Source of the DNA: Ilyomonas sp.
GTDB lineage: Bacteria; Bacteroidota; Bacteroidia; Chitinophagales; Chitinophagaceae
Length of the DNA: 64,000 bases
Assembly: GCA_965277535.1 (NCBI GenBank)
Contig: OZ255825.1
Coordinates: 900,227 to 964,226, forward strand
Reading direction: 5' to 3'
The translations under genes were made by a program, and so were the position numbers. The notes below the pieces were generated by a model, which saw nothing but the letters and a program-made list of their open reading frames with translations, was not told where the DNA came from and made no database searches. Shown here piece after piece: positions 669 through 58,327 of the stretch. Position 1 is the first letter of the stretch, and each line of letters starts with the position of its first letter.

Positions 669-704
669 TGCTTTTGTTTTTGCAGCATTTTTTGAAAATA
701 GCAA

Positions 705-799
705 TTTGAACCACGATGGCACAAAGAGAAAAAGTTACACTAAGTTTTCTTTACTACTCTTTGTGATGCTTTGTGTTCTTTGTGTCTTTGTGGTTCAAA
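705..799. repeat. REP-like imperfect inverted repeat, family A (TTGAACCAC..CACAAAG / CTTTGTGTCTTTGTGGTTCAA)
   Basis: TTTGAACCAC at 705 pairs with GTGGTTCAAA at 790-799. Related elements at 19188, 40770 and 61418. Confidence 0.75.
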
Positions 800-827
800 C
801 ATTCCTGCGATAACATTTTTTAGCGCG

Positions 828-835
828 CAAAAGTA
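828..835 (-). promoter_or_regulatory. Candidate Bacteroidota -7 promoter element for ychF
   Basis: TACTTTTG on the minus strand matches TAnnTTTG. No clear -33 TTTG. Confidence 0.4.
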
Positions 836-970
836 GGAAACCAAATTTATCCTGTTTAGCAGTATTTTGGTTTTAAACTTGTTTAACACGATGGCAGGAA
901 AGATAGTGTGTGAAAGAGAACTGTATTTTCATTCGGGATACATGACGATGCGAAGAGGAGGAAATTAACA

Positions 971-2367: not shown

Positions 2368-2448
2368 TTGGTAAAAAATATTTTACTGCAAAAACAAACC
2401 TTGTTTGTTAATTGATAATCGCACAGTTTCATTTCTTTCTTCAACCTC

Positions 2449-2456
2449 TATCTTTG
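2449..2456 (+). promoter_or_regulatory. Candidate -7 promoter element for the Omp85-nadK-DUF6089 genes
   Basis: TATCTTTG matches TAnnTTTG, about 30 bp upstream of the ATG. Confidence 0.45.
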
Positions 2457-2486
2457 CGCGCTACTGCTTATGAATAGTTGACAGGA

Positions 2487-3884: not shown

Positions 3885-3942
3885 TGCGTCGCCAGTTATC
3901 TTTGATAACGAAGTAAACGCAACCAAAACAAAAACAAACGAA

Positions 3943-4815: not shown

Positions 4816-4881
4816 ACAACCATTCCACACAAGAAACAACCAAAACATTCGTTTATGAAACATCAGCCATCTTGTATTTGT

Positions 4882-5775: not shown

Positions 5776-5779
5776 ACGC

Positions 5780-5839
5780 ATACGGCAAAAACAAAAGGCT
5801 CGTTGCACAGAAGCAGCGAGCCTTTTGTTTTTGCCGTAT
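5780..5839. terminator. Bidirectional intrinsic terminator, 23-bp perfect stem with GGCAAAAACAAA in each arm
   Basis: ATACGGCAAAAACAAAAGGCTCG (5780-5802) pairs with 5817-5839, between convergent genes. Confidence 0.85.
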
Positions 5840-5870
5840 TTTTTATAACGATAATTCTTACAAAATAAAA

Positions 5871-5892: not shown

Positions 5893-5914
5893 CTTAAAAA
5901 TAAGATGGTAGTTG

Positions 5915-7757: not shown

Positions 7758-7888
7758 TGTAAATGAATACAGAAAATAGGGCAAAACCAAAGCTTTATGC
7801 AATCTGCTATTTGAAGCTGATGTATAGCAGTTTGTAATTTGCCCACCGTTTAACACCCCTTTCGTTGCTCATTCATTATCTTCACGCC

Positions 7889-8959: not shown

Positions 8960-8985
8960 ACATTCATTTTTAAGAACCGTATTTT

Positions 8986-10295: not shown

Positions 10296-10697
10296 ATGAA
10301 ATATCTATGTTTGTTTTTGCCCGTTTTTTTACTAAGCGGTTTTGTTTATTCACAAGCAAAATCTTCTTCCCCAACGGGTAAAGATGTGTATGTAAAATAT
10401 TGCCTTACTTGTCATCAGCAGGACGGCAAAGGAGTTCCCAAACTCAATCCGCCACTCATTAAAACGTCTTATGTAACCGGCGACACAAAAACCTTAATTA
10501 CCTGGGTTTTACAAGGCAGCGGTGAAGAAAAAGTACCGATTGATGGCAATTATTATAACAACAATATGCCGCCTCAGGCGGCTCTGAAAGATGATGAGCT
10601 GGCGAAAGTGCTCACTTATATTCGCAGCAGTTGGGGCAATAAAGCAAGTGCGGTTTCTTCTGCAGAAGTGAAAGCAACCAGAGCTTCTTTGAAGTAA
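10296..10697 (+). CDS. Monoheme c-type cytochrome
   Basis: Signal peptide, CLTCH heme motif, distal Met in NNMP, LTYIRSSWGN. Confidence 0.9.
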   Translation: MKYLCLFLPVFLLSGFVYSQAKSSSPTGKDVYVKYCLTCHQQDGKGVPKLNPPLIKTSYVTGDTKTLITWVLQGSGEEKVPIDGNYYNNNMPPQAALKDDELAKVLTYIRSSWGNKASAVSSAEVKATRASLK

Positions 10698-10710: not shown

Positions 10711-10761
10711 GCAAAAACAAAAGATGCCTGTAATAAGTTTACAGGCATCTTTTGTTTTTGC
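10711..10761. terminator. Intrinsic terminator, 23-bp perfect stem with GCAAAAACAAA in each arm
   Basis: GCAAAAACAAAAGATGCCTGTAA (10711-10733), loop TAAGT, exact reverse complement at 10739-10761. Confidence 0.85.
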
Positions 10762-10790
10762 CCTATTTCTTCCATGTATCTGAATAAAAA

Positions 10791-11859: not shown

Positions 11860-12660
11860 ATGAAACTAACAGCCTTATCCGCTTTTATTTTTGTTTTTGC
11901 CCTTCTTTTTTGTTCCTGCCAAAAAGATATTCCGGATTATGTAAACGGAGCCGGTGATAGCACATCAAATAACAGCAATTCTCCGATGGTGAAAACGTAT
12001 ACTGAAGATTTATACCCGGTAAATGCGCCCGACCAACATGTAAGAGATTCGTTTGCATTGAGCTATGATAATAAAGGAAGATTGGTAAGCATGATACAAC
12101 TTGATTCAGCCAACGGACTTCAACTCAGGTATCAATATAACAACGACAATTCTATTACATTGGATCAATACGATAACGGCTCAGTGCAAACCCATGAAAT
12201 TGTTTATTTAAACAGCTTTTCTTTTACTGACAGCACGTATCAATACAACAATGAAGGCGATACATTTACAGAGAAATATACGTATGATGCAAACAGGCGG
12301 TTGATTCAAATGAACAGCTACGATTACTCGACTACAAATGGTTCTTCATTATCGGAGACAGACACTTATACCTACGATAATGATAACGATGTAATCAGAG
12401 AAGTAGATAACTATTTAAATCCACCTGGCGATTCTAATATTATTACTTCTTCTTATGCTAATCATGTTTTGAACAATTTAAACATTGGATTGAACTACCA
12501 GAACCAATCGAAATATTTGCCAGATGTTGTTACAGGCCTTGCCGGTGGAGAAACGCAAATCGCTACTCACGTTTATACATTCGATAATAAGAACCGGTTA
12601 ACAATGGATAAAGCAACGCTTAGCAATGGATACGTTGCAATTAAAAGGTATTATTACTAA
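11860..12660 (+). CDS. Hypothetical lipoprotein with YD-like repeats
   Basis: Lipoprotein signal MKLTALSAFIFVFALLFCSC-QKD, and repeated Y-D/N turns (YDNKGRL, YDANRRL, YDNDNDV, FDNKNRL). Start set at ATG 11860. Confidence 0.65.
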   Translation: MKLTALSAFIFVFALLFCSCQKDIPDYVNGAGDSTSNNSNSPMVKTYTEDLYPVNAPDQHVRDSFALSYDNKGRLVSMIQLDSANGLQLRYQYNNDNSITLDQYDNGSVQTHEIVYLNSFSFTDSTYQYNNEGDTFTEKYTYDANRRLIQMNSYDYSTTNGSSLSETDTYTYDNDNDVIREVDNYLNPPGDSNIITSSYANHVLNNLNIGLNYQNQSKYLPDVVTGLAGGETQIATHVYTFDNKNRLTMDKATLSNGYVAIKRYYY

Positions 12661-12680
12661 GCAATAATTTGCACAAAAAC

Positions 12681-12713
12681 AAAAGCCCGCTGTTGTTACA
12701 ACAGCGGGCTTTT
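12681..12713. terminator. Bidirectional intrinsic terminator
   Basis: AAAAGCCCGCTGTTG-TTA-CAACAGCGGGCTTTT between convergent genes. Confidence 0.85.
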
Positions 12714-19187: not shown

Positions 19188-19259
19188 AAACCGCAGAGAC
19201 GCTAAGACGCGAAGTTTGGTTTTGCCTGTTTTCTTTGCGTCTTAGCGTCTTAGCGGTTT
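19188..19259. repeat. REP-like hairpin, family A, with GGCAAAACCAAA in its loop
   Basis: ACCGCAGAGACGCTAAGACGCGAAG pairs imperfectly with CTTTGCGTCTTAGCGTCTTAGCGGT. May act as a terminator between convergent genes. Confidence 0.8.
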
Positions 19260-19355: not shown

Positions 19356-21311
19356 TTACCTGGTCTTTTTCGTCAGATCTTCATCATTTAGTTTTGCCGC
19401 TTTTTCTATCAACTGCACCAACTCTTTCCGATAACCTTCTTTGTCATTATCAAGGGTTTCATTTGCCAGGCTTTTTGCACTTGCATAAGAAGCATTGCCC
19501 TTGTATGCCGAAGCCCGCAACAACATACCAAACTGGGCTACTGCTGTTGCCAGTTTATAATTATCAGAAGTAGCAGTGGCTTCACTATTAACAACGGGAT
19601 GTTGCAAAAGCGCGCTCTTGTTTCCATCCGGTTGTTTGTAGCGCAGTTTGATGTTCATCAGTTCGCTACCAAAATCTCCCACCGAAATGGCTTCTGGCGA
19701 AAGATAACGCAAGGCATCAACGCTGTTTAGCTCATCCCCTTTTACACCAACCGGTATGATTTCGTACAAAGCCGTTACAGTATGGCCGCTGCCTAACTCA
19801 CCGGCGTCTTTCGCATCGTTATTAAAATCTTCTTTTGCCAGCATCCGGTTTTCATAACCAATCAACCGGTAGCCCTGTACTTTGGCAGGATTAAATTCTA
19901 TCTGCAGCTTTACATCTTTGGCAATGGTGAACAAAGTGCCGCCAAATTCATGAACCAACACTTTGTTAGCTTCTCTAATGCCATCAATGTAAGCATGATT
20001 ACCGTTGCCCTTGTCTGCCAGCTTCTGCATTTTTGCATCTTGGTAATTGCCGGTGCCATAACCCAAAACGGTAAAAAACACGCCGCTTTCGCGTTCTTTT
20101 TCTATCAGTCTTTCCAGTGCATCATCACTACTAACACCCACATTAAAATCGCCATCGGTGCATAAAATAATCCGGTTGTTGCCGCCGCTGATAAAGTTTT
20201 GTTTTGCCACTTTATAAGCTAGTTGAATGCCTTCTCCGCCAGCCGTTGAACCACCTGCTTCCAGCCTGTTGATGGCATCTTTAATGGTTCCTTTTTTATC
20301 GCCATTGGTGGAGGGCAAAACCAAACCCGCATTGCCGGCATACGCTACCAAAGAAACTTTATCCTGCGGGCGCAATTGATCGGTTAATAATTTTAATGAC
20401 GATTGCACAAGCGGCAATTTATCTTCCTCGAACATGCTGCCACTCACATCAATTAAAAAAACCAGATTGCTTGCGGGTAAATTTTGGGCAGGAATAATTT
20501 TTCCCTGCAAGCCAATCATTGCCAGTTTGTGTGTTGCATTCCAGGGACAAGCCGCCATTTCTGTGTTGATGCTGAAAGGCGCATCACCAGAGGGCTGCGG
20601 GTATTGATACGTAAAATAATTAATCATCTCCTCTATGCGAACTGCACCGGCAGGCGGCATCTCTCCATCGTTTAAAAACCTGCGGATGTTGCTGTAAGAC
20701 GCGGCATCTACATCAATGGAAAAGGTAGAAAGCGGATTATCGGTTGTTTTCAAAAAAGGATTTTCTTCTATTTTGTCATAGCCTTCTCGGTTGTAATCTG
20801 AATCGGGTTGTGATTGATAGATTTTTTTATTAAAATCTTCTTCTGCCTTACGCTTCGATTGATTGTTTATAGAAAGACCGGAAACGCGTCCGGCTAATGC
20901 TCGTGATGAGAACATTGGTGCAGGAGCAAGTTCTACATCAGCCATGATGGTAGGTGGCGTAAATTTTTCTTTCTTTTTTACGCCATAACCCATTGCCACC
21001 ACTTCATTCAATTGTGCTGAATTTGCTTTTAAAGCGATGGTTAGCGTGTCGTTGCTTGTTAATTTATATTCTTTTGCTTGATAACCCACAGCAGAAACAA
21101 CAAGCGTAGCTTTATTAGTTGTAACAGTAATTACAAAATCGCCGTTGCTGTCTGATGAAGTTCCTTCTTTTGTGCCTTTGATGATAATGCTTGCACCTGT
21201 AATTGGCCGGTTTTTCTCATCTTCAATCTTTCCCCTGATGGTTCTCTTTTGTGTTGGAATAAAGGAAAGTATAAGCAGGCAAATGCCACTGAAAAAGAAT
21301 AAGCTTTTCAT
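19356..21311 (-). CDS. YfbK-like vWA-domain protein with N-terminal carboxypeptidase-regulatory-like domain
   Basis: PLSTFSIDVDAASY, VRIEEMINYF, NLVFLIDVSGSM (MIDAS), TDGDFNVG, ELGSGHTVTALYEI. Start set at MKSLFF. Confidence 0.85.
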   Translation of the reverse strand: MKSLFFFSGICLLILSFIPTQKRTIRGKIEDEKNRPITGASIIIKGTKEGTSSDSNGDFVITVTTNKATLVVSAVGYQAKEYKLTSNDTLTIALKANSAQLNEVVAMGYGVKKKEKFTPPTIMADVELAPAPMFSSRALAGRVSGLSINNQSKRKAEEDFNKKIYQSQPDSDYNREGYDKIEENPFLKTTDNPLSTFSIDVDAASYSNIRRFLNDGEMPPAGAVRIEEMINYFTYQYPQPSGDAPFSINTEMAACPWNATHKLAMIGLQGKIIPAQNLPASNLVFLIDVSGSMFEEDKLPLVQSSLKLLTDQLRPQDKVSLVAYAGNAGLVLPSTNGDKKGTIKDAINRLEAGGSTAGGEGIQLAYKVAKQNFISGGNNRIILCTDGDFNVGVSSDDALERLIEKERESGVFFTVLGYGTGNYQDAKMQKLADKGNGNHAYIDGIREANKVLVHEFGGTLFTIAKDVKLQIEFNPAKVQGYRLIGYENRMLAKEDFNNDAKDAGELGSGHTVTALYEIIPVGVKGDELNSVDALRYLSPEAISVGDFGSELMNIKLRYKQPDGNKSALLQHPVVNSEATATSDNYKLATAVAQFGMLLRASAYKGNASYASAKSLANETLDNDKEGYRKELVQLIEKAAKLNDEDLTKKTR

Positions 21312-21498: not shown

Positions 21499-21963
21499 GT
21501 GTTTCAATTCATTGCTGATGTTCATCTTGGGAAATTAGCGCGGTACCTGCGTTTGCTGGGTTTCGATGTGTTGTATAGCAATACTTATCAACCTGAGGAG
21601 ATGATTGATATTGCTGCAAAACAAAACAGGGTTTTACTATCAAAAAATGCTCTGCTCCAGAAGCAACATCCTGACCTTTCTTTTTGTGTCGTTCAACACA
21701 GCGATCCAGTGGAACAACTGCAACAGGTTATTAAACAGTTTGATTTGCTTCGTCAAGTTCAACCTTTTACCCGCTGTCTAATTTGCAATGGAATGCTCGT
21801 ATCGGTTTTAAAAGAAGACATCCTTTTGTTTTTGCCCGAAAACACGGCAAAATATTATGATGAGTTTTGGCAATGCGCGCAATGCAGCCGCATTTATTGG
21901 AAAGGTGCACATTACAACCGGATGATAAAATGGTTGCATCGTTTAGAGGAAATAATAAAGTAA
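21499..21963 (+). CDS. Mut7-C RNase (PIN-like) domain protein
   Basis: FIADVHLGKLARYLRLLGFD, PFTRCLICNG, CAQCSRIYWKGAHY. GTG start at 21499 assumed. Confidence 0.85.
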   Translation: MFQFIADVHLGKLARYLRLLGFDVLYSNTYQPEEMIDIAAKQNRVLLSKNALLQKQHPDLSFCVVQHSDPVEQLQQVIKQFDLLRQVQPFTRCLICNGMLVSVLKEDILLFLPENTAKYYDEFWQCAQCSRIYWKGAHYNRMIKWLHRLEEIIK

Positions 21964-22063
21964 ATTCATTGACTAAAAAGCGTGCTGAATGATTTACATG
22001 TATATAAAACAACGGTTGTACATTCACAATGAAAAATAAGTGCAAAACCAAACTTAACAACAC

Positions 22064-23355: not shown

Positions 23356-23389
23356 AATTGCGGCAAAACCAAACGTATCGTTTTTGTAA

Positions 23390-35567: not shown

Positions 35568-37976
35568 TTATTCCGTTCTCAAGCTCTTCACCGGATTGGC
35601 AATCGCCGCTTTAATGGCTTGAAAACTCACTGTAACCAAGGCAATCAATAATGTAATTATTCCTGCAAAAACAAACACCCACCAACTTACCTGAATGCGA
35701 TACGCAAAGCTTTGCAGCCATTTGTTCATTGCCCACCAGGCCGCAGGAAAAGCAATGACTGATGCAATGAAAACCAGTTTTGCAAAGTCTTTAGAAAGCA
35801 TTCCGGTTACCTGGCTCACGCTTGCTCCCAACACTTTTCTGATACCAATTTCTTTGGTACGTTGCTCGGCAGTATAAGTAGCCAATCCAAACAAACCAAG
35901 ACAGGCAACAAAAATGGTCAGGATTGAAAACAGGTTGAGGATGGTTCCTGTTTTTTGTTCAGCAGAGTATGTTTTATTAAAAAGGTCATCTATAAAACTG
36001 TAAGTAAAAGGCTCACCGGTGTTATAACTTTCCCACTGCCTTTTCATGAAAGAAAGTAAGCCTGCAACGTCTTTTGTTTTTACCTTAAAAACAAGTCCAC
36101 CTTCAGGTTGAAGCGTCATAAACAAAGGGCTAACCGCTTCATGCAATGATTTGAAATTGAAATTTTTTACGACACCAATGACATGATAAGCAAAGTTGTT
36201 GCCTCTGTCGCTATTCTGCCTGATGATTGTTTTTCCAATAGCCGTTGTATTGTTCCAACCCAACGCCTTTGCTGCGGTTTCATTTAAAAGAATGGCTGAA
36301 GAATCGGTTGCAAAATCTTTAGAAAAATTTCTTCCGCTTGCCATCTTCATATCAAACGTTGGTATGTAATTTTCATCAACATGATAATCCACACCATTTA
36401 CAATTAAATGATCGTTGCCCTGCGGGTAAGCCAGTGCATTGTTGTAATTGCTAGGACCGGCAGGCTTGTACCACGACATGGTTGCATTTACAATTCTTGG
36501 GTCTTGCAGCATTTGTTGTTTAAACGCTCCTTCGTTCTTGCCCAAAACATAAGAGTTGGGAAGGGTAATGAGTTGCTCTTTGTTATAACCCAAATCTTTG
36601 TTTTGAATAAACTTCATCTGCTGATAAACTACAATTGTTCCGATGATCAACCCGGTAGAAATAAAAAATTGAAACACGACCAGACCGCTTCTTAAGCCAA
36701 AGCTTTTGTTATGGCTTGTGAATTTTCCTTTTAAAACAGCGATGGGTTTGAAAGAGGATAAATAGAAGGCCGGATACATACCTGCCACTATACCAACCAA
36801 CAACCCCAATGCAACAAAAGCGATGATTGGTTTTGCATCAAAATGCAAATGTTTATCTGCTATAGCGTTGAATGCCGGCAATGCGAGTTGCACCATGGCA
36901 AATGCAACCAACAAGGCAAACAGGGTTATCATCACTGATTCTGATAAAAATTGTTTGATGAGTTGAACTCTGCCTGAGCCTGCTACTTTTCTTATACCAA
37001 CTTCTTTTGCCCGCCTGGCAGCACCGGCAGTTGACAGGTTGATAAAATTGATGCAGGCAATCATCAACATAAAAATGGCAATACCACCAAAGATGTACAC
37101 ATACATGGCATTGCCACCAGGTTCAAATTCGTTGTTGGTTGTGGAGTGTAAATGAATATCAGTTAATGGCTGCAATTGGAAGCCAAGCGAGTTACCTTTT
37201 GTTCTGAACTGCTGAAGGCTTAATCCCATTCGCTGTTGAATTTGCGGCCCCATATACTTTGCCACCATGTCCGGAAACCTCGCTTCCATTTTTGTAAGAT
37301 CTGCGCCCGGACGGAGCAAAAGATAAGTGTGATAACCACCGTCCATCCAGGAATCAGACTTAGCATCTTGCCAGCCGGTCATCGAACCAAACATATCAAA
37401 ATGAAAATGCGAGTTTGCCGGAAGGTTTTGGATAACGCCTGTTACTTTATAAGAGTCCGTATTGTTAAAGCTGAGCGTTTTGCCAAGCGCGTTTTCTTTA
37501 CCAAAATACTTTTCTGCCGTTGATTTTGTAATGACGATTGTATGTGGTTGCTGTAATGCAGTTTTTGCATTTCCCTCAATCATTGGCAAAGTGAACAGGC
37601 TGAAGAAGTTGGGATCAACAAAAGCAAATTGATCATCTTTAAAAGTCTTTTCCTGGTAGGTAACTTTTGATGCACCCATATTCAAAAGCCTTGTTGCGTC
37701 CTCTACTTCAGGAAAATCTTTCTTCATTGTTTGCGCAACCGGCGGCATGGCAATGCTTTCATTGATTTCACCTCCGTTGATGTTGGCATGAAAAACAACG
37801 CGCACAATGTTGGCAGCATTTACATTGAATTTGTCATAGCTCATCTCATCCTGCACATATAGCATGATGATAAAACAAGTGGCAATGCCAATGGATAATC
37901 CAAGAATATTAATGATGGAGAAAAGTTTGTTTTTGCGGATATTTCGCCATGCGATTTTGAAATAATTTTTAAACAT
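35568..37976 (-). CDS. MacB/FtsX-like ABC permease, copy 2 (802 aa)
   Basis: MFKNYFK start, two FtsX motifs, ANPVKSLRTE end. Confidence 0.92.
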   Translation of the reverse strand: MFKNYFKIAWRNIRKNKLFSIINILGLSIGIATCFIIMLYVQDEMSYDKFNVNAANIVRVVFHANINGGEINESIAMPPVAQTMKKDFPEVEDATRLLNMGASKVTYQEKTFKDDQFAFVDPNFFSLFTLPMIEGNAKTALQQPHTIVITKSTAEKYFGKENALGKTLSFNNTDSYKVTGVIQNLPANSHFHFDMFGSMTGWQDAKSDSWMDGGYHTYLLLRPGADLTKMEARFPDMVAKYMGPQIQQRMGLSLQQFRTKGNSLGFQLQPLTDIHLHSTTNNEFEPGGNAMYVYIFGGIAIFMLMIACINFINLSTAGAARRAKEVGIRKVAGSGRVQLIKQFLSESVMITLFALLVAFAMVQLALPAFNAIADKHLHFDAKPIIAFVALGLLVGIVAGMYPAFYLSSFKPIAVLKGKFTSHNKSFGLRSGLVVFQFFISTGLIIGTIVVYQQMKFIQNKDLGYNKEQLITLPNSYVLGKNEGAFKQQMLQDPRIVNATMSWYKPAGPSNYNNALAYPQGNDHLIVNGVDYHVDENYIPTFDMKMASGRNFSKDFATDSSAILLNETAAKALGWNNTTAIGKTIIRQNSDRGNNFAYHVIGVVKNFNFKSLHEAVSPLFMTLQPEGGLVFKVKTKDVAGLLSFMKRQWESYNTGEPFTYSFIDDLFNKTYSAEQKTGTILNLFSILTIFVACLGLFGLATYTAEQRTKEIGIRKVLGASVSQVTGMLSKDFAKLVFIASVIAFPAAWWAMNKWLQSFAYRIQVSWWVFVFAGIITLLIALVTVSFQAIKAAIANPVKSLRTE

Positions 37977-38062: not shown

Positions 38063-40435
38063 TTATTCCGTTCTCAAACTCTTTACAGGATTGGCAATCG
38101 CTGCTTTAATGCTTTGATAGCTTACCGTTATTACTGCGATTAAAACAGACAATAAACCCGCACCTGCAAACACCCACCATTCAATAGAAATGCGATACGT
38201 GTAAGAGGAAAGCCAGCGGCTCATTGCCCACCAGGCAATGGGCGAGGCAATAACAAAAGACACAATCACCAGCGTTAAAAAGTCTTTCGATAACAAGGTG
38301 GTAATGTTGGTAACGCTGGCACCCAATACTTTGCGCACACCTATTTCTTTGATGCGGTTTTCAGCCATGTAAGTTGCCAAACCAAACAAACCCAAACAGG
38401 AAATAAAAATGGTTAAGCCGGCAAACAAACCAGCCAGTGTGCCGGTGCGTTGTTCTTCCTGAAATTTGAGTGCATAAGCTTCGTCAACAAATTTGTAATC
38501 GAATGGATATTGCGGGTTGTACTTCTTAAATACATGTTCTGCCAATTGCAATGCTTCAGCAGTTGACTTTTGCGGATTCAGTTTGAAATGAACGATGTTG
38601 AATCCTGATGATGCCGGACCTTGCACCACCAACTGTTGTACTTTTTCGTAAGGCGATTGATAAATAAAATCTTTTACTACACCCACCACATACCAGTCTT
38701 TCCCATCCGATTTTACAATCTGCCCAATCGGATTTTTAAATCGCATCATTTTTACCGCCGTTTCATTCAGAAGCATCGCGGTACTATCGGCAGGATAATT
38801 CTTTATATCAATGTCTCTTCCCTGCAACAAGGTAACGCCCATTGTCTTTACAAAATCGGCGTCAGAAGTCATTCTTACAAAGTCAGTTTTTTCATCGCCT
38901 GGTTGTGCGCCTTGCCAGCTAAAGCCCCAACTATCGCTGTATCGCTGCGTTATCGGGCTCATGCTTTTGGTAACCGCAATGGCAGCACGACTGCTTAACA
39001 ATTCATCTTTAATTGCATCGTAATGTTTGGCTATATCGCCTTGTATGAAGGTGTAAACCAACTGGTCCCGCTTATAACCTGCATCACGGCTTTGCGCGTA
39101 TTTTATCTGGCGTTGAACAATGATGGTGCAGATGATTAAGGCAATGGCGAATGTGAACTGTAACACCACCAAAACCTTGCGTGGTGTTACCAAAGCATGA
39201 GCTGCTTTGAATGTCCCCTTTAATACTTTTACTGGTTGATAAGACGATAAATAAAACGCCGGATAACTCCCTGCAATAAAACCTGTAAAAACAATAAATG
39301 AAAGAAAAAACAGCAAAAACAAAGGGTTGCCATAACCAATGTAAAGCTCTTTGCCTACCAGTGTATTAAAAGGCGACAAACAAAGCTGAACAATAACAAC
39401 AGCAAGCACTCCGGCAATGAACGAAAGCAAAATACTTTCGCCGATAAACTGCGCAACGAGCGAACTTTTTTGCGCGCCAACCACTTTGCGAATGCCTACT
39501 TCTTTCGCGCGTTTTTCGCTGCGCGCGGTTGATAAATTCATGAAATTGATGCAGGCGATGAGCAAAATAAAAAGCGCGATTATAGCAAACAGTTTTACCA
39601 TTTCAATACGACCACCTACAAACTTTCCGTTCTCCGATTTTGAGTACAGCCACGTGTCGCGCAAGGGTTGTGTAAACACTTGCGTTGTGTTTTTATCGCC
39701 ATCTTTTGTGTGATTGATGGTGATGTTTTTTATTTTCGCATCAAACGCATCATGGCTTACGCCCGGCTTTAATAAAATATAAGTTTGAATAGAGTTGTTG
39801 CCCCAATATTCATCATCGTATCCTATCTTCTTCATGTATTGCCAAGGCAACAAATATTCAAAGTTGAAAGTAGTGTTGTTGGGAAGGTCTTTTAAAACAC
39901 CACTCACCGTAAAATTATCGGTACTGTCAATTCGCACCACTTGGCCAACCGCATCGGTGGTGCCGAATAATTTGTTTGCTAATTTTTCTGTGATGACAAT
40001 ATTGCTGATACTGCTCAAAGCATTGCCTGCATTGCCTTTCAGGAGAGGAAAAGAAAACATTGAAAGAAAAGAAGGATCGGTAAAATAGCCTTGTGCATTC
40101 AGGTGCTTCTCACCAACCGTAAACAAAAAATTATTTTGGTTTACTCTCGCAACATCTTCAATGTCATTAGCATATTCAAGTCTTAATGTTTGTCCTAAAA
40201 TTTTAGGAGTGGTAGTCCATGCCCAAACATCACCATTAAATTTGTCTCGGTTGGCAGCAATATACAGGCGGTTTTCTTTTGCATGAAAACGATCCATGCT
40301 TAGTTCATTTTGTATCCATAACAAAATCATAACAGCACTTGCCATCCCAATGGCAAGACCTGAAATGTTGATGAATGAAAAAACTTTGTTGCGAAGCAAA
40401 TTGCGCCATGCAATGGTGAAAAAGTTCTTTATCAT
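38063..40435 (-). CDS. MacB/FtsX-like ABC permease, copy 1 (790 aa)
   Basis: Start set at MIKNFF. Two FtsX motifs. Ends ANPVKSLRTE. Confidence 0.92.
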   Translation of the reverse strand: MIKNFFTIAWRNLLRNKVFSFINISGLAIGMASAVMILLWIQNELSMDRFHAKENRLYIAANRDKFNGDVWAWTTTPKILGQTLRLEYANDIEDVARVNQNNFLFTVGEKHLNAQGYFTDPSFLSMFSFPLLKGNAGNALSSISNIVITEKLANKLFGTTDAVGQVVRIDSTDNFTVSGVLKDLPNNTTFNFEYLLPWQYMKKIGYDDEYWGNNSIQTYILLKPGVSHDAFDAKIKNITINHTKDGDKNTTQVFTQPLRDTWLYSKSENGKFVGGRIEMVKLFAIIALFILLIACINFMNLSTARSEKRAKEVGIRKVVGAQKSSLVAQFIGESILLSFIAGVLAVVIVQLCLSPFNTLVGKELYIGYGNPLFLLFFLSFIVFTGFIAGSYPAFYLSSYQPVKVLKGTFKAAHALVTPRKVLVVLQFTFAIALIICTIIVQRQIKYAQSRDAGYKRDQLVYTFIQGDIAKHYDAIKDELLSSRAAIAVTKSMSPITQRYSDSWGFSWQGAQPGDEKTDFVRMTSDADFVKTMGVTLLQGRDIDIKNYPADSTAMLLNETAVKMMRFKNPIGQIVKSDGKDWYVVGVVKDFIYQSPYEKVQQLVVQGPASSGFNIVHFKLNPQKSTAEALQLAEHVFKKYNPQYPFDYKFVDEAYALKFQEEQRTGTLAGLFAGLTIFISCLGLFGLATYMAENRIKEIGVRKVLGASVTNITTLLSKDFLTLVIVSFVIASPIAWWAMSRWLSSYTYRISIEWWVFAGAGLLSVLIAVITVSYQSIKAAIANPVKSLRTE

Positions 40436-40814: not shown

Positions 40815-41714
40815 TTACACTTTCCTTCTTACAAAACTACTGGTGGTTACTTCGTTCAACTGATACACCGGGCAACCGCCTTTTTGCGTGGTAACAAAGG
40901 CACCCAATTTATTAGCAAAATCTAAAATGTGCTGGTAAGGAATACGGTCAAGCAATTGAAAAATAACGGCTGCTAAAAACGAATCACCGCTGCCAACGGT
41001 ATCGGCAACCGTTACATGATAACCTTCGTGGCTGTGTAAGGTATCACCTACTTTTAGCAAAGCGCCTTCCGCACCTTTGGTCACAATCACAATGTTTAAA
41101 TTGAATTTTTCCTGCAGAAACAAAATGGCTTCTTCCTCATTTTTGTAAGCCGTAAACCAATCGGTAATAAGCTTTAATTCAGCTTCATTCAGCTTTACAA
41201 TATCAGCTTTTTGGAGCAGCGTTTCAATTAACTCCTGGCTATAATGAGGCGCACGCAAATTAATATCCAGCACTTTTGTTTTTGCATCATTTATTAGTTT
41301 CAACAATGTGTTGCGCGTGGTTTCGCTTCTTGCTGCCAAAGTTCCAAACACAAAATAATCGGCTTCTTTCACCAGCTTGTTTAATGTTTCGTTGTACTGA
41401 ATGGCATCCCAGGCAACGTTGTGTACAATGTTGTACACCATTTCATGAGCCTCTTTCAAACTTGCCACCACCGTACTTGTTGGCAAGGCATCGTCTATCT
41501 GAACATATTGAGTATTGATATTTTTTTCTTTCATCACAGCTAATAATTCCTCACCAAGTTCATCATTGCCAACACGCGAAATCATCGCTGCGTTTTTACC
41601 CAGCTTTCCCAGGTGATAAGCAACATTCATTGGTGCACCGCCCGATTGTTTTCCATCGGGTAAAAAATCCCATAAAACTTCACCAAAACAAACAACAGGA
41701 TGAGAGGAATTCAT
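40815..41714 (-). CDS. PfkB-family carbohydrate kinase (fructokinase-like)
   Basis: GEVLWD, GGAPMNVA, VGNDELG, LDINLR, DTVGSGDSF. Confidence 0.9.
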   Translation of the reverse strand: MNSSHPVVCFGEVLWDFLPDGKQSGGAPMNVAYHLGKLGKNAAMISRVGNDELGEELLAVMKEKNINTQYVQIDDALPTSTVVASLKEAHEMVYNIVHNVAWDAIQYNETLNKLVKEADYFVFGTLAARSETTRNTLLKLINDAKTKVLDINLRAPHYSQELIETLLQKADIVKLNEAELKLITDWFTAYKNEEEAILFLQEKFNLNIVIVTKGAEGALLKVGDTLHSHEGYHVTVADTVGSGDSFLAAVIFQLLDRIPYQHILDFANKLGAFVTTQKGGCPVYQLNEVTTSSFVRRKV

Positions 41715-43551: not shown

Positions 43552-43585
43552 AAAAAAGGCTGTACAAAATTGTACAGCCTTTTTT
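43552..43585 (+). terminator. Intrinsic terminator of degP
   Basis: AAAAAAGGCTGTACA-AAAT-TGTACAGCCTTTTTT. The U-tract runs into TTTGTTTTTGC. Confidence 0.88.
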
Positions 43586-43600
43586 GTTTTTGCATGAATA

Positions 43601-45935: not shown

Positions 45936-46237
45936 AAAAACGGGCTTGCAAAGAGTCGGTAAGATAAGGGCTTTATCGTCTTGTAAAGTCAATTTATAAA
46001 GAATAAATTTGGGCAAAAACAAACTCTTCAGGAAAGTAAATCAGACTACGTAAGTACTTCGTCAGAAATGATTTCAAGTAATCAAAGTAGCGCGTCATTC
46101 TTTTCTTCAATGAACTTTTAAATAATCAGCAAGGGGCTTTGTCGGAATTTTACCTCTGAATTATTTACAAATAAATTTGATGCAATACATACATTTCGTT
46201 TCCAATTTGTTTTTGCACATATTTTAATGGTTTATAA

Positions 46238-54487: not shown

Positions 54488-55624
54488 TTATAAAGATTGT
54501 AAAATTTGTTCGGCAATGATTTCATCTGCATTTGTAACGGCAAGTTTTGCAATATTGGTTTCCAATTTTTGCTGTTTGTTTTCATCAAATAAAAGGTTGG
54601 TAACCGTACTGAACAATTTGCCTCCTGCTTCGTTGTCTTTTACCAGTAAAGCTGCGTTTTTATCAACCAGATATTTTGCATTTTCGGTTTGATGATCTTC
54701 GGCAGCATGAGGAAACGGAACAAACACGACTGCTTTTTTTGCAGCGCACAATTCAGCTACCGACATAGCACCGGAGCGTGAAATAACAACATCAGCCGCG
54801 GCATACGCTTTATCCATATCCTGTATAAAATCGTTCACCCAAACAAATGATTTTCCACTACCACGCTGTATGTAAGTATTGGCGGTTGCTTTGCCGGTTT
54901 GCCAAATCAGTTGGGCGTTTAATGACGCCAGTTCTGATACATGATACGCAAGCACTTCATTAATGCTTTTTGCACCCAAACTTCCACCAATGGCAAGGAT
55001 GGTTTTCTTGCCATTTTCCAACCCAAAAAATGCCAATGCCTCTTGTTGAGAAATAGTAATGTGAGAAATAGATTTCCGAATCGGATTGCCTGTTACAACA
55101 ATCTTTTCAGCAGGAAAGAATTTATCCATTCCAGTAGAAGCCACGAAAATTTTAGTTGCCCTTTTACCCAATAAAATATTGCTCTTACCTGCAAACGAAT
55201 TGCTCTCGTGAATGAAAGTAGGGATGTTTTGTTTTTGCGCATATTTCAACACCGGATACGAAGAATAACCGCCCACACCAATCACTGCATCCGGCTTGAA
55301 TGTTCTAAGAATGCTACTCACCTCAAAAAAGCTTTTTATCAGCTTAAAAGGGAGTGTAATGTTTTTAAAAAGAGAACTTCTGTTGAAGCCGGCAATGTCA
55401 ATGCCTTTAATACTATAACCTGCCTGTGGCACCCTTTCCATCTCCATTCTTCCTTTTGCCCCTATAAATAGAAATTGTGCGGAAGGTTGCAACTTTTTAA
55501 TTGCATTGGCAATGGCAATGGCAGGAAAAATATGTCCTCCTGTACCACCGCCGGCAATGATAAAACGCCCCCCCGCCCCTAAAGGGGAGCTATGACGAGC
55601 ATCATTATTTGTTACTTCTTTCAT
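54488..55624 (-). CDS. murG: MurG GlcNAc transferase
   Basis: GGGTGGHIFP, GGYSS, GGSLGA, SRSGA, EDHQTENA. Confidence 0.95.
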   Translation of the reverse strand: MKEVTNNDARHSSPLGAGGRFIIAGGGTGGHIFPAIAIANAIKKLQPSAQFLFIGAKGRMEMERVPQAGYSIKGIDIAGFNRSSLFKNITLPFKLIKSFFEVSSILRTFKPDAVIGVGGYSSYPVLKYAQKQNIPTFIHESNSFAGKSNILLGKRATKIFVASTGMDKFFPAEKIVVTGNPIRKSISHITISQQEALAFFGLENGKKTILAIGGSLGAKSINEVLAYHVSELASLNAQLIWQTGKATANTYIQRGSGKSFVWVNDFIQDMDKAYAAADVVISRSGAMSVAELCAAKKAVVFVPFPHAAEDHQTENAKYLVDKNAALLVKDNEAGGKLFSTVTNLLFDENKQQKLETNIAKLAVTNADEIIAEQILQSL

Positions 55625-55692
55625 TTTAAAATTATAATCAAAACCAAATTTACTTACGCAGCTAAAGGTTCCCCTTTAGGGGCGGAGGGGCT
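55568..55692. repeat. Inverted pair of family-D-like palindromes inside the murG 5' and ftsW 3' ends
   Basis: CCCCCCCGCCCCTAAAGGGGAGCT (55568-55591) and GGTTCCCCTTTAGGGGCGGAGGGGCT (55667-55692) are near reverse complements. Confidence 0.8.
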
Positions 55693-56931
55693 TTGCTTCC
55701 CTTCCAGCTGTTCAACATTTGTTGCTACGCTTAATATAATTCCAATGGCTGCACATGTAAATAAAAAAGAGCTTCCTCCCATACTTACCAAGGGTAAAGT
55801 AACACCGGTAACCGGCGTAAGATTTACATTTACCGCCATGTTGGCAAGCGCTTGTATCACCATGCTGAAACTCAGGCCCAGTGCGAGAAAGGCACCAAAT
55901 GCATACGGGCATCTTTTAAAAATGTTGATACATCGAAACAAAAAAATCATGTAAATAAAAATGATAAACACGCCACCCAGTAAGCCGTATTCTTCTATAA
56001 TGATAGAATAAATAAAATCGTTGTAAGCCTGTGGCAAAAAATTGCGCTGCCGGCTTTTGCCGGGTCCCAATCCATACAACAAACTGCCATTGGCAATGGC
56101 AATATTCGCCTGCTGAACCTGGTAAGGTACTGCATCATCTTTAGCATATATAAAATCCTGCACACGACTTACCCAGGTTCCAAATCGTCCCATTGAAGTA
56201 AGCGTTTCCGATACTTTGTTTTTGTGCAATTCTTTTACGCCATCATTTGTTTTACCGGTATATGTACTTACGGCAATGGAAACAATCAAAGCAACAGGTA
56301 GAAGAGCAAGCCCCATCACCAACAACAAATGTTTGATGTGAACCCTGCCAATGAATAATAAGATTAACGAAGTAGCGCCAGTTAACAAAGCGTTGGAAAG
56401 GTTCGCAGGCATGATTAAAATACAGGTTAATGCGATGGGAACAATTAATGGAATAAAGCCCCGCTTAAAGTCTTTAATCACTTCCTGCTTGCGGCTTAAC
56501 TGTCTTGATAAATACATGAAGAGAGCCACTTTTGCAAAGTCGCTCGTTTGAAACGTCATGTGAATCACGGGCAATTTTATCCATCGGCTGCCTTCGTTAA
56601 TTTGTGCGCCGAAGAATAAAGTATAAATTAGTAGAGGAATGGAAATGAGGTACAATATCAACGCAACGCGGGAAAAGATGGTATAGTTGATGCGGTGCAA
56701 AAAATAAATGATGAGCAAGCCGATAACAATGAAGGAAAGCTGTTTAAACAAATACACTTCTGTATTGCCTTTGTACATTTTATAAGCCAGCGAGCCGGTA
56801 GCACTATACACTACCAGCACAGATGCCAGCGCCAGTAACAGCACACAGCTCCAGATGTATTTATCACCTTTCGCCTTGCTGCTTAAATGGCGAAAAGGCT
56901 GTTGTAAACTGAGTAAATCTGCCATAAACAA
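55654..56931 (-). CDS. ftsW: FtsW (SEDS family)
   Basis: RWIKLP..FQTSDFAK, FLPQAYNDFIY, GVTLPLVSMGGSS. Confidence 0.93.
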   Translation of the reverse strand: MFMADLLSLQQPFRHLSSKAKGDKYIWSCVLLLALASVLVVYSATGSLAYKMYKGNTEVYLFKQLSFIVIGLLIIYFLHRINYTIFSRVALILYLISIPLLIYTLFFGAQINEGSRWIKLPVIHMTFQTSDFAKVALFMYLSRQLSRKQEVIKDFKRGFIPLIVPIALTCILIMPANLSNALLTGATSLILLFIGRVHIKHLLLVMGLALLPVALIVSIAVSTYTGKTNDGVKELHKNKVSETLTSMGRFGTWVSRVQDFIYAKDDAVPYQVQQANIAIANGSLLYGLGPGKSRQRNFLPQAYNDFIYSIIIEEYGLLGGVFIIFIYMIFLFRCINIFKRCPYAFGAFLALGLSFSMVIQALANMAVNVNLTPVTGVTLPLVSMGGSSFLFTCAAIGIILSVATNVEQLEGKQSPSAPKGEPLAA

Positions 56932-56938
56932 AAACGGC

Positions 56939-58327
56939 TTACAAAGCCTTCACAGCCTCTTTAAATTGCTTACCACGATCTTCATAATTCTTAAACAAAT
57001 CGAACGAAGCGCAGGCCGGACTTAACAAAACCACATCGCCTTTATCGGCTGCTTCAAACGACTGCTTCACTGCATCAACAGCTGAAGCAGTATCTATTAC
57101 ACGAACGATTTTATCAAACGCTTCATGTATTTTTTTATTATCAACGCCAAGGCAAACAATTGCTTTTACTTTTTCACGAACCAACTCTTCAATGGCTGAG
57201 TAATCGTTGCCTTTATCAACACCGCCCAGTATTAAAATGGTTGGCTTCATCATGCTTTCCAGCGCAAACCAGGTGCTGTTCACATTGGTAGCTTTGCTAT
57301 CGTTGATAAACTCAACGCCACGCACAACGGCAACCGGCTCCATACGGTGCTCCAGCGTTTCAAAGCTTTCCACAGCTTCACGGATTTTCTCTTTCCGAAT
57401 GTCCATTGTAAGTGCTGCAATGCCCGCTGCCATTGTGTTTGACTGGTTGTGTTTGCCTTTTGCAGCAAAGTTGTAAATGTTCATGCTAACTCTTTCATCG
57501 TTGGCTTTCATTGTAATCTGATCGCCTTTAAGGAAGGCTCCTTTTTTTGGTTCTTGTTTCATAGAAAATGGCAATAATTTACTGGTGATTAAAATGCTTT
57601 CTAATTTTTTAATAATTACTTCATCGTCCATATTGTAGATGAAGTAATCGTCAGGAGTTTGTTTATTGATGATTTTAAATTTGCTGCTGATGTAATTATC
57701 GAAATTGTAATTGTATCTGTCTAAATGATCTTCGGTAATGTTTAATAAGATGGCAATATGCGCCCTGAAATCAACGATGTCATCCAATTGAAACGATGAA
57801 ATTTCAGCGATGTATAATGGCTTTGGATCTTCTGCCACTTGTTTGGCAAAAGAGTAACCAATGTTGCCAACAATAGCGCAATCCAAACCCGCCGTTTTGC
57901 AAATGTGATACAGCATGGAAGTGGTGGTACTCTTTCCATTGCTACCAGTGATGGCAACAATTTTACTATCGCCTGTAAAACGAAAAGCAAGTTCTATCTC
58001 GCTGATTACCGGAATGCCGCTGCTTCTTATCTTCTTTACCATTTCATTCTTTTCAGGAATGCCAGGACTTTTTACTACCTCGTCAACACCTAAAATTCTT
58101 TCTTCCGAATGCTTGTTTTCTTCCCATTCAATTCCGTTATCAGTAAGCTCTTGTTTGTAGGCCTCTTTTATCGTTCCGGCATCACTCACAAACACTTCGT
58201 ATCCATTCTTCTTGGCCAGCAAAGCAGCACCCACGCCGCTTTCACCTGCGCCTAAAATAGCTACCGACCAAATAGGTTGATCAGTAACCAGAAGTTGCGT
58301 TTCGTTGTCTGTTTTGTTTTTGCTCAT
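56939..58327 (-). CDS. murD: UDP-MurNAc-L-Ala-D-glutamate ligase
   Basis: GAGESG, KSPGIP, TGSNGKSTT, EISSFQL, NDSKATN, SPACASFD. Confidence 0.96.
   Translation of the reverse strand: MSKNKTDNETQLLVTDQPIWSVAILGAGESGVGAALLAKKNGYEVFVSDAGTIKEAYKQELTDNGIEWEENKHSEERILGVDEVVKSPGIPEKNEMVKKIRSSGIPVISEIELAFRFTGDSKIVAITGSNGKSTTTSMLYHICKTAGLDCAIVGNIGYSFAKQVAEDPKPLYIAEISSFQLDDIVDFRAHIAILLNITEDHLDRYNYNFDNYISSKFKIINKQTPDDYFIYNMDDEVIIKKLESILITSKLLPFSMKQEPKKGAFLKGDQITMKANDERVSMNIYNFAAKGKHNQSNTMAAGIAALTMDIRKEKIREAVESFETLEHRMEPVAVVRGVEFINDSKATNVNSTWFALESMMKPTILILGGVDKGNDYSAIEELVREKVKAIVCLGVDNKKIHEAFDKIVRVIDTASAVDAVKQSFEAADKGDVVLLSPACASFDLFKNYEDRGKQFKEAVKAL

Follow-up and report, generated by a model that had tools for sequence, protein, structure and literature searches.

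The window, the whole 64,000-nt stretch of Ilyomonas sp. DNA analysed here, includes cheR and cheB, a cytochrome c gene followed by an ERF gene, several MacB/FtsX permease paralogues, pfkB, htrA, and a dcw cluster. Throughout it, from position 673 to 58323, lie 29 exact copies of the 11-mer GCAAAAMCAAA, 15 on the plus and 14 on the minus strand, with M being A in 20/29 and C in 9/29. A leading G extends 16 of the 29 to a 12-mer (GGCAAAAMCAAA), against 0.2 expected. This recount is identical to that of the preliminary description of the window, both in the numbers of 11-mers and 12-mers and in their balanced orientation. The copies are listed below, together with one single-mismatch copy; A and C forms refer to the base at M, L001 and L002 are two sister species, and L201, L205, L207 and L208 are other compared loci.

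673..683, minus: copy, A form, intergenic 5′ of cheR, within a small hairpin (TGCTGC-TTTTGTTTT-TGCAGCA; loop and 3′ stem) that a T run follows
2388..2398, plus: copy, A form, 21 nt past the cheB stop, followed by a partial inverted copy, TTGTTTGTT
5784..5795, plus: 12-mer, left arm of an inverted pair, at a GC-rich terminator hairpin between convergent genes
5824..5835, minus: 12-mer, right arm of the same pair, forming the T-rich tail of hairpin 5786-5833
7780..7791, plus: 12-mer, C form, divergent intergenic region just 5′ of an aminotransferase gene; in all three species
10310..10321, minus: 12-mer, antisense within the cytochrome c gene, in codons of its signal peptide (CLFLP)
10711..10721, plus: copy, left arm of an inverted pair, at the hairpin between the cytochrome c and ERF genes
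10751..10762, minus: 12-mer, right arm at the same hairpin; in all three species
11890..11901, minus: 12-mer, antisense in the 5′ part of ORF 11755-12660 (FVFAL); in all three species
12673..12683, plus: one-mismatch copy, ACAAAAACAAA, adjoining strong terminator hairpin 12681-12713; perfect in L002
14077..14088, minus: 12-mer, A form, sense in the last codons of an Rrf2 regulator gene; C form in L001 and L002
18196..18207, plus: 12-mer, C form, sense in codons 9-13 of a tyrosine recombinase ORF
19215..19226, minus: 12-mer, C form, intergenic between convergent genes, in the loop of a hairpin whose stem is 14 bp (AGACGCTAAGACGC / GCGTCTTAGCGTCT)
20314..20325, plus: 12-mer, C form, antisense in a VWA/YfbK gene (GLVLP)
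21825..21836, minus: 12-mer, antisense in a Mut7-C RNase gene (LLFLP)
22042..22052, plus: copy, C form, ending 11 nt before a DinB-family start codon (22064)
23362..23373, plus: 12-mer, C form, beginning 6 nt past the end of a PPK2 gene (23355), between convergent genes
25897..25908, plus: 12-mer, antisense at the 3′ end of a MacB/FtsX permease paralogue (FVFAA)
30189..30200, plus: 12-mer, C form, antisense in a MacB/FtsX paralogue interior (ALVLP)
32086..32096, plus: copy, C form, antisense in a MacB/FtsX paralogue interior (HLVLQ)
35665..35675, plus: copy, antisense at a MacB/FtsX paralogue 3′ end (FVFAG)
37926..37936, minus: copy, sense at a MacB/FtsX paralogue 5′ end (RKNKL)
39313..39323, plus: copy, antisense in a MacB/FtsX paralogue interior (PLFLL); orthologous L201 site GCCAGAACAAA
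40740..40751, plus: 12-mer, C form, intergenic, with the pfkB stop codon on one side and the next gene on the other
41275..41285, minus: copy, sense in pfkB (AKTKV); an old site that is perfect in L201 and L208 as well
43583..43593, minus: copy, T-rich tail of terminator hairpin 43552-43585 after htrA
46012..46023, plus: 12-mer, 5′ end of a DUF5916 gene or upstream of it, divergent region, straddling the called ORF start
46206..46216, minus: copy, ending 21 nt before the start of the next gene (46238)
55228..55238, minus: copy, sense in murG (AQKQN); orthologous L205 and L207 sites 2 and 6 substitutions away
58313..58323, minus: copy, sense in murD codons 2-5 (M-SKNK-T)

No null model reaches 29 copies. 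Dinucleotide shuffles of the window give 1.03 +/- 1.01 (maximum 4), and Markov models predict 0.97-1.86 at orders 1-5 and 4.7 at order 6; when orders 3-6 are trained with the motif copies masked they give 0.99-1.90, and the excess is therefore still approximately 15-28 fold. An earlier estimate of about 0.1 chance occurrences was thus roughly tenfold too low, and the suggestion that a Markov or codon-shuffled null might account for the counts is not borne out. The enrichment declines steeply with mismatch, from 26x for perfect copies to 3x for one mismatch (54 observed vs 18 expected, in agreement with the many such copies remarked on before) and 1.1x for two (163 vs 149).

With gene calls taken as maximal ORFs, 15 copies are inside ORFs, 13 are fully intergenic and one (46013) lies across an ORF start, a slight revision of the 14 genic and 15 intergenic copies initially assigned. 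Synonymous shuffling of all 40 ORFs yields 1.86 +/- 1.23 coding copies (maximum 6), and 0/1000 shuffles reach the observed 15. The coding copies occupy five of the six reading frames, and all of the peptide contexts previously noted (LVLP, LFLP, FVFA, AKT, RKNK, QKQN and LVLQ) were reproduced; the view that no single peptide constraint explains them holds, and the excess resides in the DNA rather than in the encoded proteins. The pfkB copy at 41275..41285 is probably a chance copy kept by a conserved peptide. Intergenic DNA carries the motif at about 8 times the density of coding DNA, where there is one copy per 3.8 kb. Because the dcw cluster is almost wholly coding, approximately four copies are predicted there, and the two observed (55228 and 58313) do not represent a significant deficit; the count in the preliminary description was correct, and the scarcity that it implied is not significant.

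About 7-9 copies touch terminator hairpins, some as inverted pairs around hairpins of unrelated sequence (5785/5824 and 10711/10751) and others forming hairpin tails (43583 and the one-mismatch copy at 12673). Loss of the enrichment on masking of terminator T-tracts, named earlier as a possible refutation, is not seen: without the terminator-touching copies at least 20 are left, against about one expected. At the htrA terminator (43583), L201 and L205 retain the hairpin without the motif. In Neisseria and Pasteurellaceae, paired uptake sequences form terminators (PMC1852404).

The motif extends beyond the 11-mer. Its sequence logo is significantly informative from -10 to -1 and at +11, giving a full motif of approximately 22 nt, ARAAAWWnSK-GCAAAAMCAAA-M, the A-rich arm of which is seen also in most of the listed coding copies. 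The enriched one-mismatch forms are changes at the two 5′ G/C positions, G>A (11 vs 0.97 expected) and C>T (6 vs 0.85), the latter being GTAAAAMCAAA, the deamination product of the single 5′ C; such an excess is as expected from a balance of mutation and drive.

Among the sampled Chitinophagaceae, with 106 kb of the clade compared, the enriched motif is confined to three sister species of an uncultured lineage. The two sisters, at 85-88% nucleotide identity, carry 6.7 copies per 10 kb, and adding the window brings the total to 57 in 106 kb (5.4 per 10 kb). By comparison, there are seven copies in 78 other Chitinophagaceae loci (1.38 Mb), one in closer HtrA relatives (119 kb) and one in L201, at ~81% nucleotide identity; overall, this ~81%-identity genome and some 85 other Chitinophagaceae loci (1.5 Mb) have ~0.05 copies per 10 kb. 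Conservation in relatives, proposed earlier as a check, is thus seen in the two sister species, with background levels in the other sampled loci of the family. Of 17 sites aligned across the three species, four have the motif in all three, five in two and eight in only one, and species without it are 1-2 substitutions off at the same position. At 39313, 43583 and 55228, outgroup sequences come progressively closer to the motif. Judging from these alignments, copies are gained and lost by point substitution at orthologous positions and not by insertion, and they are therefore not REP or MITE elements. Intergenic copies have a between-species identity of 0.90, compared to 0.78 for random intergenic 11-mers and 0.73 for A/T-rich ones.

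On these sequence properties, the motif is real and new, and resembles uptake sequences. We tentatively favour, at somewhat below even likelihood, its spread and maintenance by sequence-biased gene transfer, most likely DNA uptake of the DUS/USS type; a molecular drive of this kind fits better than any rival. We infer by analogy both that DNA uptake is the biased step and that these bacteria have natural competence. A component of the DNA-uptake machinery would preferentially bind double-stranded fragments with the motif, and these would be taken up and recombined into the chromosome, such that sites mutating towards the motif would be over-transmitted with time while G:C>A:T mutation would erode existing copies. 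Copies would build up where tolerated: in intergenic DNA, A/T tracts beside terminator hairpins, signal peptides, gene ends, and Lys/Asn-rich stretches. The uptake interpretation in the preliminary description is partly supported, and the sequence-level predictions testable here all agree with it, namely a steep mismatch gradient, strand balance, survival of codon shuffling, use of five frames, terminator inverted pairs, a narrow lineage, and origin by point substitution. Its statement that no uptake sequence has been described in Bacteroidota agrees with our literature searches. Some findings count against this reading. The clade is very narrow and the motif is absent at ~81% nucleotide identity, so that thousands of copies would have had to build up fast, whereas known DUS and USS are old and family-wide; and the ~8x intergenic density and frequent terminator contact make a role in transcription or DNA structure possible. 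In addition, no competence genes (comEC, comEA, dprA, comF, comM, pilus or secretin) were found in the window.

The copies could instead be sites for an abundant DNA-binding protein gained by the lineage – nucleoid-associated, DNA-bending, or terminator-acting – with each held by selection. A length of ~22 bp, two helical turns with A-tracts, would suit a footprint or bend, and the intergenic density, hairpin contacts and conservation of intergenic copies beyond background all point the same way. However, selection would have to make and keep thousands of exact sites quickly, including antisense genic copies in five frames; 8/17 aligned sites are present in a single species, which is unsuited to a position-specific function, and in L201 and L205 the orthologous terminators work with no copy of the motif present. 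We know of no nucleoid protein giving an exact-word excess that drops so steeply at one mismatch, and we regard this explanation as unlikely, if the strongest of the alternatives. Somewhat less likely still is a HIP1-like product of biased mutation or repair with no role in gene transfer, in which a lineage-specific methyltransferase or very-short-patch-type repair converts near-matches. Fast appearance by point substitution in a narrow clade favours it, as does the prominence of GTAAAAMCAAA (C deaminated) as the commonest position-1 near-miss; moreover, the same k-mer screen also recovered HIP1 on L103, which its HIP1 motif leads us to presume is a cyanobacterial contig, so the two motifs resemble each other statistically. 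Against it, the known contexts of methylation and repair span 4-8 bp and tend to be palindromes, whereas the present motif is asymmetric with information across ~22 bp; ordinary mutational decay predicts G>A and C>T near-misses just as well, and neither a methyltransferase gene nor a repair gene was found in the window. Both alternatives are weakened.

Bias could also arise on the donor side, if the motif were a packaging or transfer signal of a GTA-like particle, generalized transducing phage or conjugative system whose exported, marked DNA recombines in recipients. A donor-side bias would leave a population-genetic signature identical to that of uptake bias, and the lineage, substitution, codon-shuffle and mismatch data therefore suit it just as well; in addition, the three species conserve a chromosomal gene for an ERF-family annealing protein (10845-11444). 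Nonetheless, no such system is known to us in which the signal recurs every 2 kb, genes for phage structure or conjugation were not found in the window, and we consider this explanation improbable. A polar motif of the Chi or KOPS type, read by RecBCD/AddAB or FtsK, is more improbable again: such motifs do occur about once per few kb in coding and non-coding DNA alike, but known examples are 5-8 nt and G-rich whereas this one is 11-22 nt and A-rich, with inverted pairs common, and its strands are balanced (15 vs 14) despite a GC skew of the same sign in 12/16 4-kb bins that falls steadily overall, and although one strand holds most genes. Least credible is that base composition, codon usage or terminator T-tracts create the excess artefactually, or that the copies belong to a REP/MITE mobile element. 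The motif is A/T-rich, several copies overlap terminator A or T tracts, and the inverted-pair pattern alone arises by chance in many unrelated organisms; yet Markov (order 1-6), dinucleotide and codon-shuffle models are all insufficient, same-GC relatives and 120 unrelated one-pair loci have only ~0.05-0.08 copies per 10 kb, paired copies enclose hairpins of unrelated sequence, and species differ by substitution rather than by insert presence or absence. The null models, the densities in relatives and the substitution pattern refute these possibilities.

The putative uptake motif can be compared with several known systems. The Neisseriaceae DUS is a 12-mer, ATGCCGTCTGAA, with dialects, recognised by the minor pilin ComP. 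The two share a non-palindromic form of 10-12 nt, a spacing of about 1-2 kb, equal use of strands, intergenic density, frequent inverted pairs at intrinsic terminators, lineage specificity, and, in our comparison, perfect copies that far outnumber one-mismatch copies. They differ in that the A-rich GCAAAAMCAAA is unrelated and has no CTG core, occurs in the phylum Bacteroidota and in three sister species rather than family-wide, has an additional A-rich arm of ~10 nt, has paired copies that flank a GC-rich hairpin rather than form it, and is not known to have a ComP-like receptor or an uptake preference. The Pasteurellaceae USS has a 9-nt core (AAGTGCGGT or ACAAGCGGT) with flanking AT-rich segments, and shares with this motif a short conserved core and adjoining A/T-rich segment (a composite >20 nt), as well as many genic copies in several frames and tolerant protein segments, terminator inverted pairs, and evolution by point mutation. 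The cores are unrelated, however, the A-rich arm here is one-sided, and relative to the Haemophilus USS the coding fraction is lower and the function putative. HIP1, the highly iterated palindrome GCGATCGC of cyanobacteria, is likewise a very abundant, lineage-restricted short exact word of unsettled function in coding and non-coding DNA, but it is an 8-bp palindrome and not an asymmetric motif of 11-22 nt. Within Bacteroidota, natural competence does occur, and Riemerella columbina (Flavobacteriaceae) is competent and favours its own DNA (PMC7965970). No discrete motif is seen there, the top k-mers being low-complexity A-runs at ~5 times expectation (PMC7965970), in contrast to the discrete exact word described here, detected at ~26 times expectation in genomic DNA.

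Separately, a second and unrelated motif, CCTTRCGGYAAA, shows a similar enrichment in a different lineage of Chitinophagaceae.

The 11-mer GCAAAAMCAAA (M = A or C), a word resembling uptake sequences, occurs exactly 29 times in the window – 15 copies on the plus strand and 14 on the minus – and the counts, strands and coordinates in the preliminary description, which proposed it as a candidate uptake sequence, are exact on recount. Dinucleotide-preserving shuffles of the whole window contain 1.03 +/- 1.01 copies with a maximum of 4, and the analytic Markov expectation is 0.97 to 1.86 for orders 1-5 and 4.7 for order 6, or 0.99 to 1.90 for orders 3-6 when the copies are masked from the training data. 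A Markov null, proposed earlier as a check, fails to explain the 29 copies; the earlier estimate of about 0.1 chance copies was tenfold too low, with the conclusion of an excess unaffected. The 12-mer GGCAAAAMCAAA is present 16 times in the window versus 0.20 expected. GC content is flat across the window (39-42%), and an unbiased k-mer screen of it ranks GCAAAAACAAA highest by frequency among enriched 11-mers, with the remaining top k-mers traced to seven tandem permease paralogues. These paralogues (23390-40483, minus strand; ~800 aa each, MacB/FtsX-type) explain further enriched k-mers, among them GTGAATGGTGAG and GTGAGTAGTGA, and are probably the source of the excess of a Chi-like 9-mer, GCCTGGTGG (E. 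coli Chi is GCTGGTGG), found six times in the window versus 0.57 expected.

The window was represented by 40 maximal ORFs, whose starts are maximal-ORF guesses, with products that include CheR/CheB, NAD kinase, a sigma-54 activator, aminotransferases, a TonB receptor, seven MacB/FtsX permeases, HtrA, and the dcw cluster. Searches of the window for Rfam families and tRNAs gave no hits. Fifteen copies lie within ORFs, 13 are wholly intergenic, and one (46013) straddles an ORF start; because the intergenic copies share only 6.8 kb, their density is about 8 times that of coding DNA. Synonymous codon shuffling within each gene, preserving both proteins and codon usage, leaves 1.86 +/- 1.23 copies in the ORFs, and none of 1000 shuffles reaches the observed 15; the excess is one of DNA and not of protein sequence. 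The coding copies use five of the six frames and encode AKT, xKNK or xQKQ where they are sense and xL(V/F)LP or FVFA where they are antisense, in keeping with the earlier claim that no single peptide constraint accounts for them; 7 of the 15 lie within 5% of an ORF end. The preliminary description had cautioned that copies are few in the dcw cluster, a concern that largely dissolves since the two present compare with about four predicted from coding density.

Alignment of the copies with their flanks extends the consensus to ARAAAWWnSK GCAAAAMCAAA M, about 22 nt, with preferences for A at -10 to -6, A/T at -5 and -4, G/C at -2, G/T at -1, and A/C at +11. The A-rich arm is discernible by eye in most of the in-gene copies and is thus not just intergenic background. 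Copies with one mismatch are enriched 3-fold (54 versus 18), and those with two are at background (163 versus 149). The enriched one-mismatch forms are ACAAAAMCAAA (11 versus 0.97) and GTAAAAMCAAA (6 versus 0.85), which correspond to G>A and C>T changes in the pair of G/C positions at the 5' end.

Some copies are associated with transcription terminators. Inverted pairs at 5785/5824 and 10711/10751 bracket GC-rich hairpins, and the stems of these hairpins are mutually unrelated. Strong hairpins take their T-rich tails from copy 43583 and from a copy with one mismatch at 12673, copy 19215 lies in a hairpin loop, and copy 673 in loop and stem. Masking of terminators had been named as a way in which the enrichment might disappear; with the hairpin-linked copies left out, at least 20 copies still remain. 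In motif-free relatives the orthologous terminator at site 43583 retains its hairpin and T-tract but not the word, so the motif is not needed for terminator formation. A metagenome scan for the inverted pair GCAAAAACAAA-N18-45-TTTGTTTTTGC returned more than 120 matches in unrelated organisms with GC contents of 25-68% and almost no additional copies, and the 120 loci recovered serve as a negative control. The pair was rejected as a lineage marker, the scan having recovered unrelated organisms and not the motif lineage; its shape is that of a generic bidirectional terminator and by itself is no predictor of word abundance.

Relatives of the NAD kinase place the window in the Chitinophagaceae, beside Ilyomonas. 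Two loci from sister species (L001 and L002, uncultured Chitinophagaceae) are syntenic with positions 1-14.9 kb of the window at nucleotide identities of 88% and 85%, and each contains 14 copies in 20.9 kb, a density like that of the window. The two sister genomes are CAWJYO01 and CAWBOI01, both MFD04580 bins. A comparison with relatives had been suggested in the preliminary description, and in it the motif is present in these two loci and nearly absent elsewhere in the sample; two Ilyomonas loci (L003 and L004) counted among the 78 other Chitinophagaceae loci have zero copies.

Exact copies of GCAAAAMCAAA in the sampled loci
Window, L001 and L002: 57 copies in 106 kb (5.4 per 10 kb)
78 other Chitinophagaceae loci: 7 copies in 1.38 Mb (0.05 per 10 kb)
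L201, a syntenic outgroup locus on contig ctg135688 of ERZ25070695 (~81% nucleotide identity): 1 copy in 21.5 kb
L202-L208, closer relatives by HtrA: 1 copy in 119 kb
120 unrelated loci with one inverted pair each: 6 further copies in 775 kb

On these counts one small clade, sampled over 106 kb in total, has the word at about 100-fold the density seen elsewhere in the sample, and the word's confinement to three sister species implies a recent and rapid origin. The motif-bearing organism is known from metagenomes only, and an exact-protein look-up of two window proteins matched no record. Between motif-bearing terminators in the window (10845-11444, minus strand) lies a chromosomal gene, standing alone, whose product is a single-strand annealing protein of the ERF family, a function usually found in phages; synteny of this region extends to L001 and L002, with 84-88% identity. 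A putative 'T dialect' of the motif in L201, TAAAAACAAA (10 copies in 21.5 kb), was set aside as unproven when its excess failed inspection, three copies being in a local repeat and several being conserved coding sites common to motif-free relatives; within positions 11743-11830 of L201, a unit that includes …AAAACAGAGTAAAAACAAA… is present three times at ~40-bp spacing.

Alignment of the three sister species over 15 kb reveals 17 sites with a perfect copy in at least one of them, four common to all three, five common to two, and eight found in a single species. The aligned non-motif sites are one or two substitutions away (e.g. GCAAAAATAAA, ATAAAACCAAA, GGTAAAAACAAA and TTTGTTTTTGTC), a further between-species difference is an A/C swap at the M position, and some motif-site substitutions change amino acids; no insertions were found among the motif-site differences in this alignment or in the outgroup comparisons. 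Set against outgroup loci L201, L205 and L207, copies 39313, 43583 and 55228 show a stepwise approach from similar sequence, and the site of copy 41275 is old, kept in place by peptide conservation. Between-species identity of intergenic copies is 0.90, versus 0.78 for random and 0.73 for A/T-rich 11-mers from intergenic DNA, and that of coding copies is only slightly higher than its comparison (0.93 versus 0.87-0.91). Because one genome at ~81% identity lacks the motif and the three sister species at 85-88% have it, with many copies restricted to one species, its build-up is datable and can be observed in progress.

To our knowledge, sequence-specific DNA uptake is established in two proteobacterial families only, and to judge from its sequence the motif resembles both of their signals in behaviour and belongs to neither. 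The Neisseriaceae uptake sequence (DUS) is GCCGTCTGAA or a dialect with a CTG core, which GCAAAAMCAAA lacks, and no pilin gene is in view, the DUS receptor ComP being a minor pilin. The uptake signal sequence (USS) of Pasteurellaceae has a core of AAGTGCGGT or ACAAGCGGT, neither of which is matched, and AT-rich flanks, to which the single A-rich arm of the motif (-10 to -4, on the 5' side only) is analogous in a different architecture. The motif also differs from DUS and USS in its phylum and in its restriction to three sister species, and its copies flank terminator hairpins, unlike DUS and USS, which form them.

Explanations of the excess by composition, by codon usage, by terminator tracts, or by REP or MITE elements are ruled out by the null models, the codon shuffle, the removal of terminator copies, and the substitution differences between species. 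REP, MITE and REPIN elements are self-complementary, exclusively intergenic, and differ between genomes by insertion, whereas the motif has no internal palindrome, half of its copies are in coding DNA, and species differ at it by substitution. Polar motifs of the Chi or KOPS type are strongly co-oriented with replication, and no such polarity is seen, the 15 and 14 copies on the two strands being spread over a window in which GC skew – from which alone replication direction was inferred – has a single sign in 12 of 16 4-kb bins. The Bacteroidota promoter (-33 TTTG, -7 TAnnTTTG) was considered and rejected, as the motif logo has neither the TA nor a second box at the required spacing, and the orientation of copies relative to genes is mixed.

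An uptake-type drive, in which biased uptake of motif-bearing DNA followed by recombination would constitute a molecular drive, appears to be the best explanation of the motif, and we put it at slightly less than an even chance. It would jointly account for an exact, asymmetric word about once per 2 kb without strand polarity and in many frames against codon expectation, for its greater density where sequence varies freely, its pairing at terminators and its young clade, and for its origin by point substitution, ongoing turnover, and near-misses that are mostly the commonest mutations. We favour it because the literature describes such a signature for DUS and USS and attributes it to biased uptake and recombination acting as a molecular drive (PMC3630211, PMC2397512, PMC3458573, PMC1852404); the step from the signature to DNA uptake is one that we infer. 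If the lineage had acquired a DNA-binding protein, with selection acting on its sites in the thousands, the 22-bp footprint and the intergenic bias would be accounted for; this is unlikely, however, since sites found in one species only, antisense copies within genes, and the little time available all suit it badly. Less probable again is a HIP1-like process driven by methylation or repair: the speed and the substitution mode would suit it, but no recognition context is known to approach the length and asymmetry that it would need, and HIP1-type motifs are palindromic octamers overlapping a methyltransferase site, whereas the present motif is asymmetric. (The k-mer screen has a positive control in locus L103, where GCGATCGCA, which is HIP1, occurs 17 times in 12.5 kb; the contig is on this account presumably cyanobacterial.) A donor-side packaging or transfer signal would be expected to leave the same signature and is inseparable from uptake here, although we think it very improbable.

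No competence genes are located within the 64-kb window. Natural competence does occur in Bacteroidota, and Riemerella columbina favours its own DNA, with a k-mer search yielding low-complexity A-runs only (PMC7965970). The preliminary description knew of no uptake sequence in this phylum, and a literature search for the word itself, or for uptake sequences in Bacteroidetes/Bacteroidota, likewise found no prior description in the papers covered. It is conceivable, although we hold this with more doubt than uptake-type drive itself, that the motif represents the first uptake sequence outside the Proteobacteria: a newly arisen ~22-bp self-recognition tag serving natural transformation in an uncultured Chitinophagaceae genus, with a receptor unrelated to ComP, and with independent, unrelated tags in other lineages of the family, e.g. 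CCTTRCGGYAAA in locus L074. The origin of uptake specificity and of genomic tags is still under debate, and this reading, if true, means that specificity arises and changes faster and more widely than would be supposed from the two classical families. An uptake signal would imply natural competence and own-DNA preference in a common soil and freshwater group of Bacteroidota, point to a new receptor, and offer a practical route to the transformation of Chitinophagaceae of the uncultured type; if the motif is not an uptake signal, some other process is filling a genome with thousands of exact copies of an 11-22-mer.

The word CCTTRCGGYAAA occurs 15 times in the 20.9 kb of L074 (positions 1-20879; DALYLQ010000001, Chitinophagaceae bacterium CTOTU46683) versus 0.4 expected, eight times on the plus strand and seven on the minus, in both coding and intergenic DNA. 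It makes a second uptake-sequence-like motif, unrelated to the first and equally enriched, in another lineage of Chitinophagaceae, a hint that tags of this sort have originated more than once in the family. Two further candidates were rejected: the A-rich 10-mers that top Sediminibacterium-type loci have no conserved flanks and are composition noise, and GGCATTGGC in the Ilyomonas locus L003 reads GGC-ATT-GGC and may simply be Gly-Ile-Gly codons. A possible further motif, a weak candidate, is AACCGGATA, present 5-7 times per ~20-kb locus in Ilyomonas-like genomes (L202:9710-19521, L203 and L204) versus ~0.3-0.5 expected, with one occurrence forming the palindrome AACCGGATATCCGGTT.

Repeats of other kinds are also present. 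Foetidibacter and Limnovirga loci contain inverted pairs ~150 bp apart that end in GTACAAGAGTGCGACGCAAGTAAAGC (L009:5523-5690, 13534-13700 and 17780-17940; L007:18480-18650) and look like REPIN or MITE elements, a phenomenon separate from the motif studied here. In the window, an element of ~245 bp (17866-18112) with terminal inverted repeats of ~80 bp (…GCCTGCCGTCATTCCGCAAATGCCCTCAACACGATG…) sits just upstream of a tyrosine recombinase gene (18171-19178). Metagenome contigs from four runs were compared with window positions 1-20000, and in run X1 the depth of this element is ~350-5800x versus ~90x in its flanks, so it is a high-copy, MITE-like repeat.
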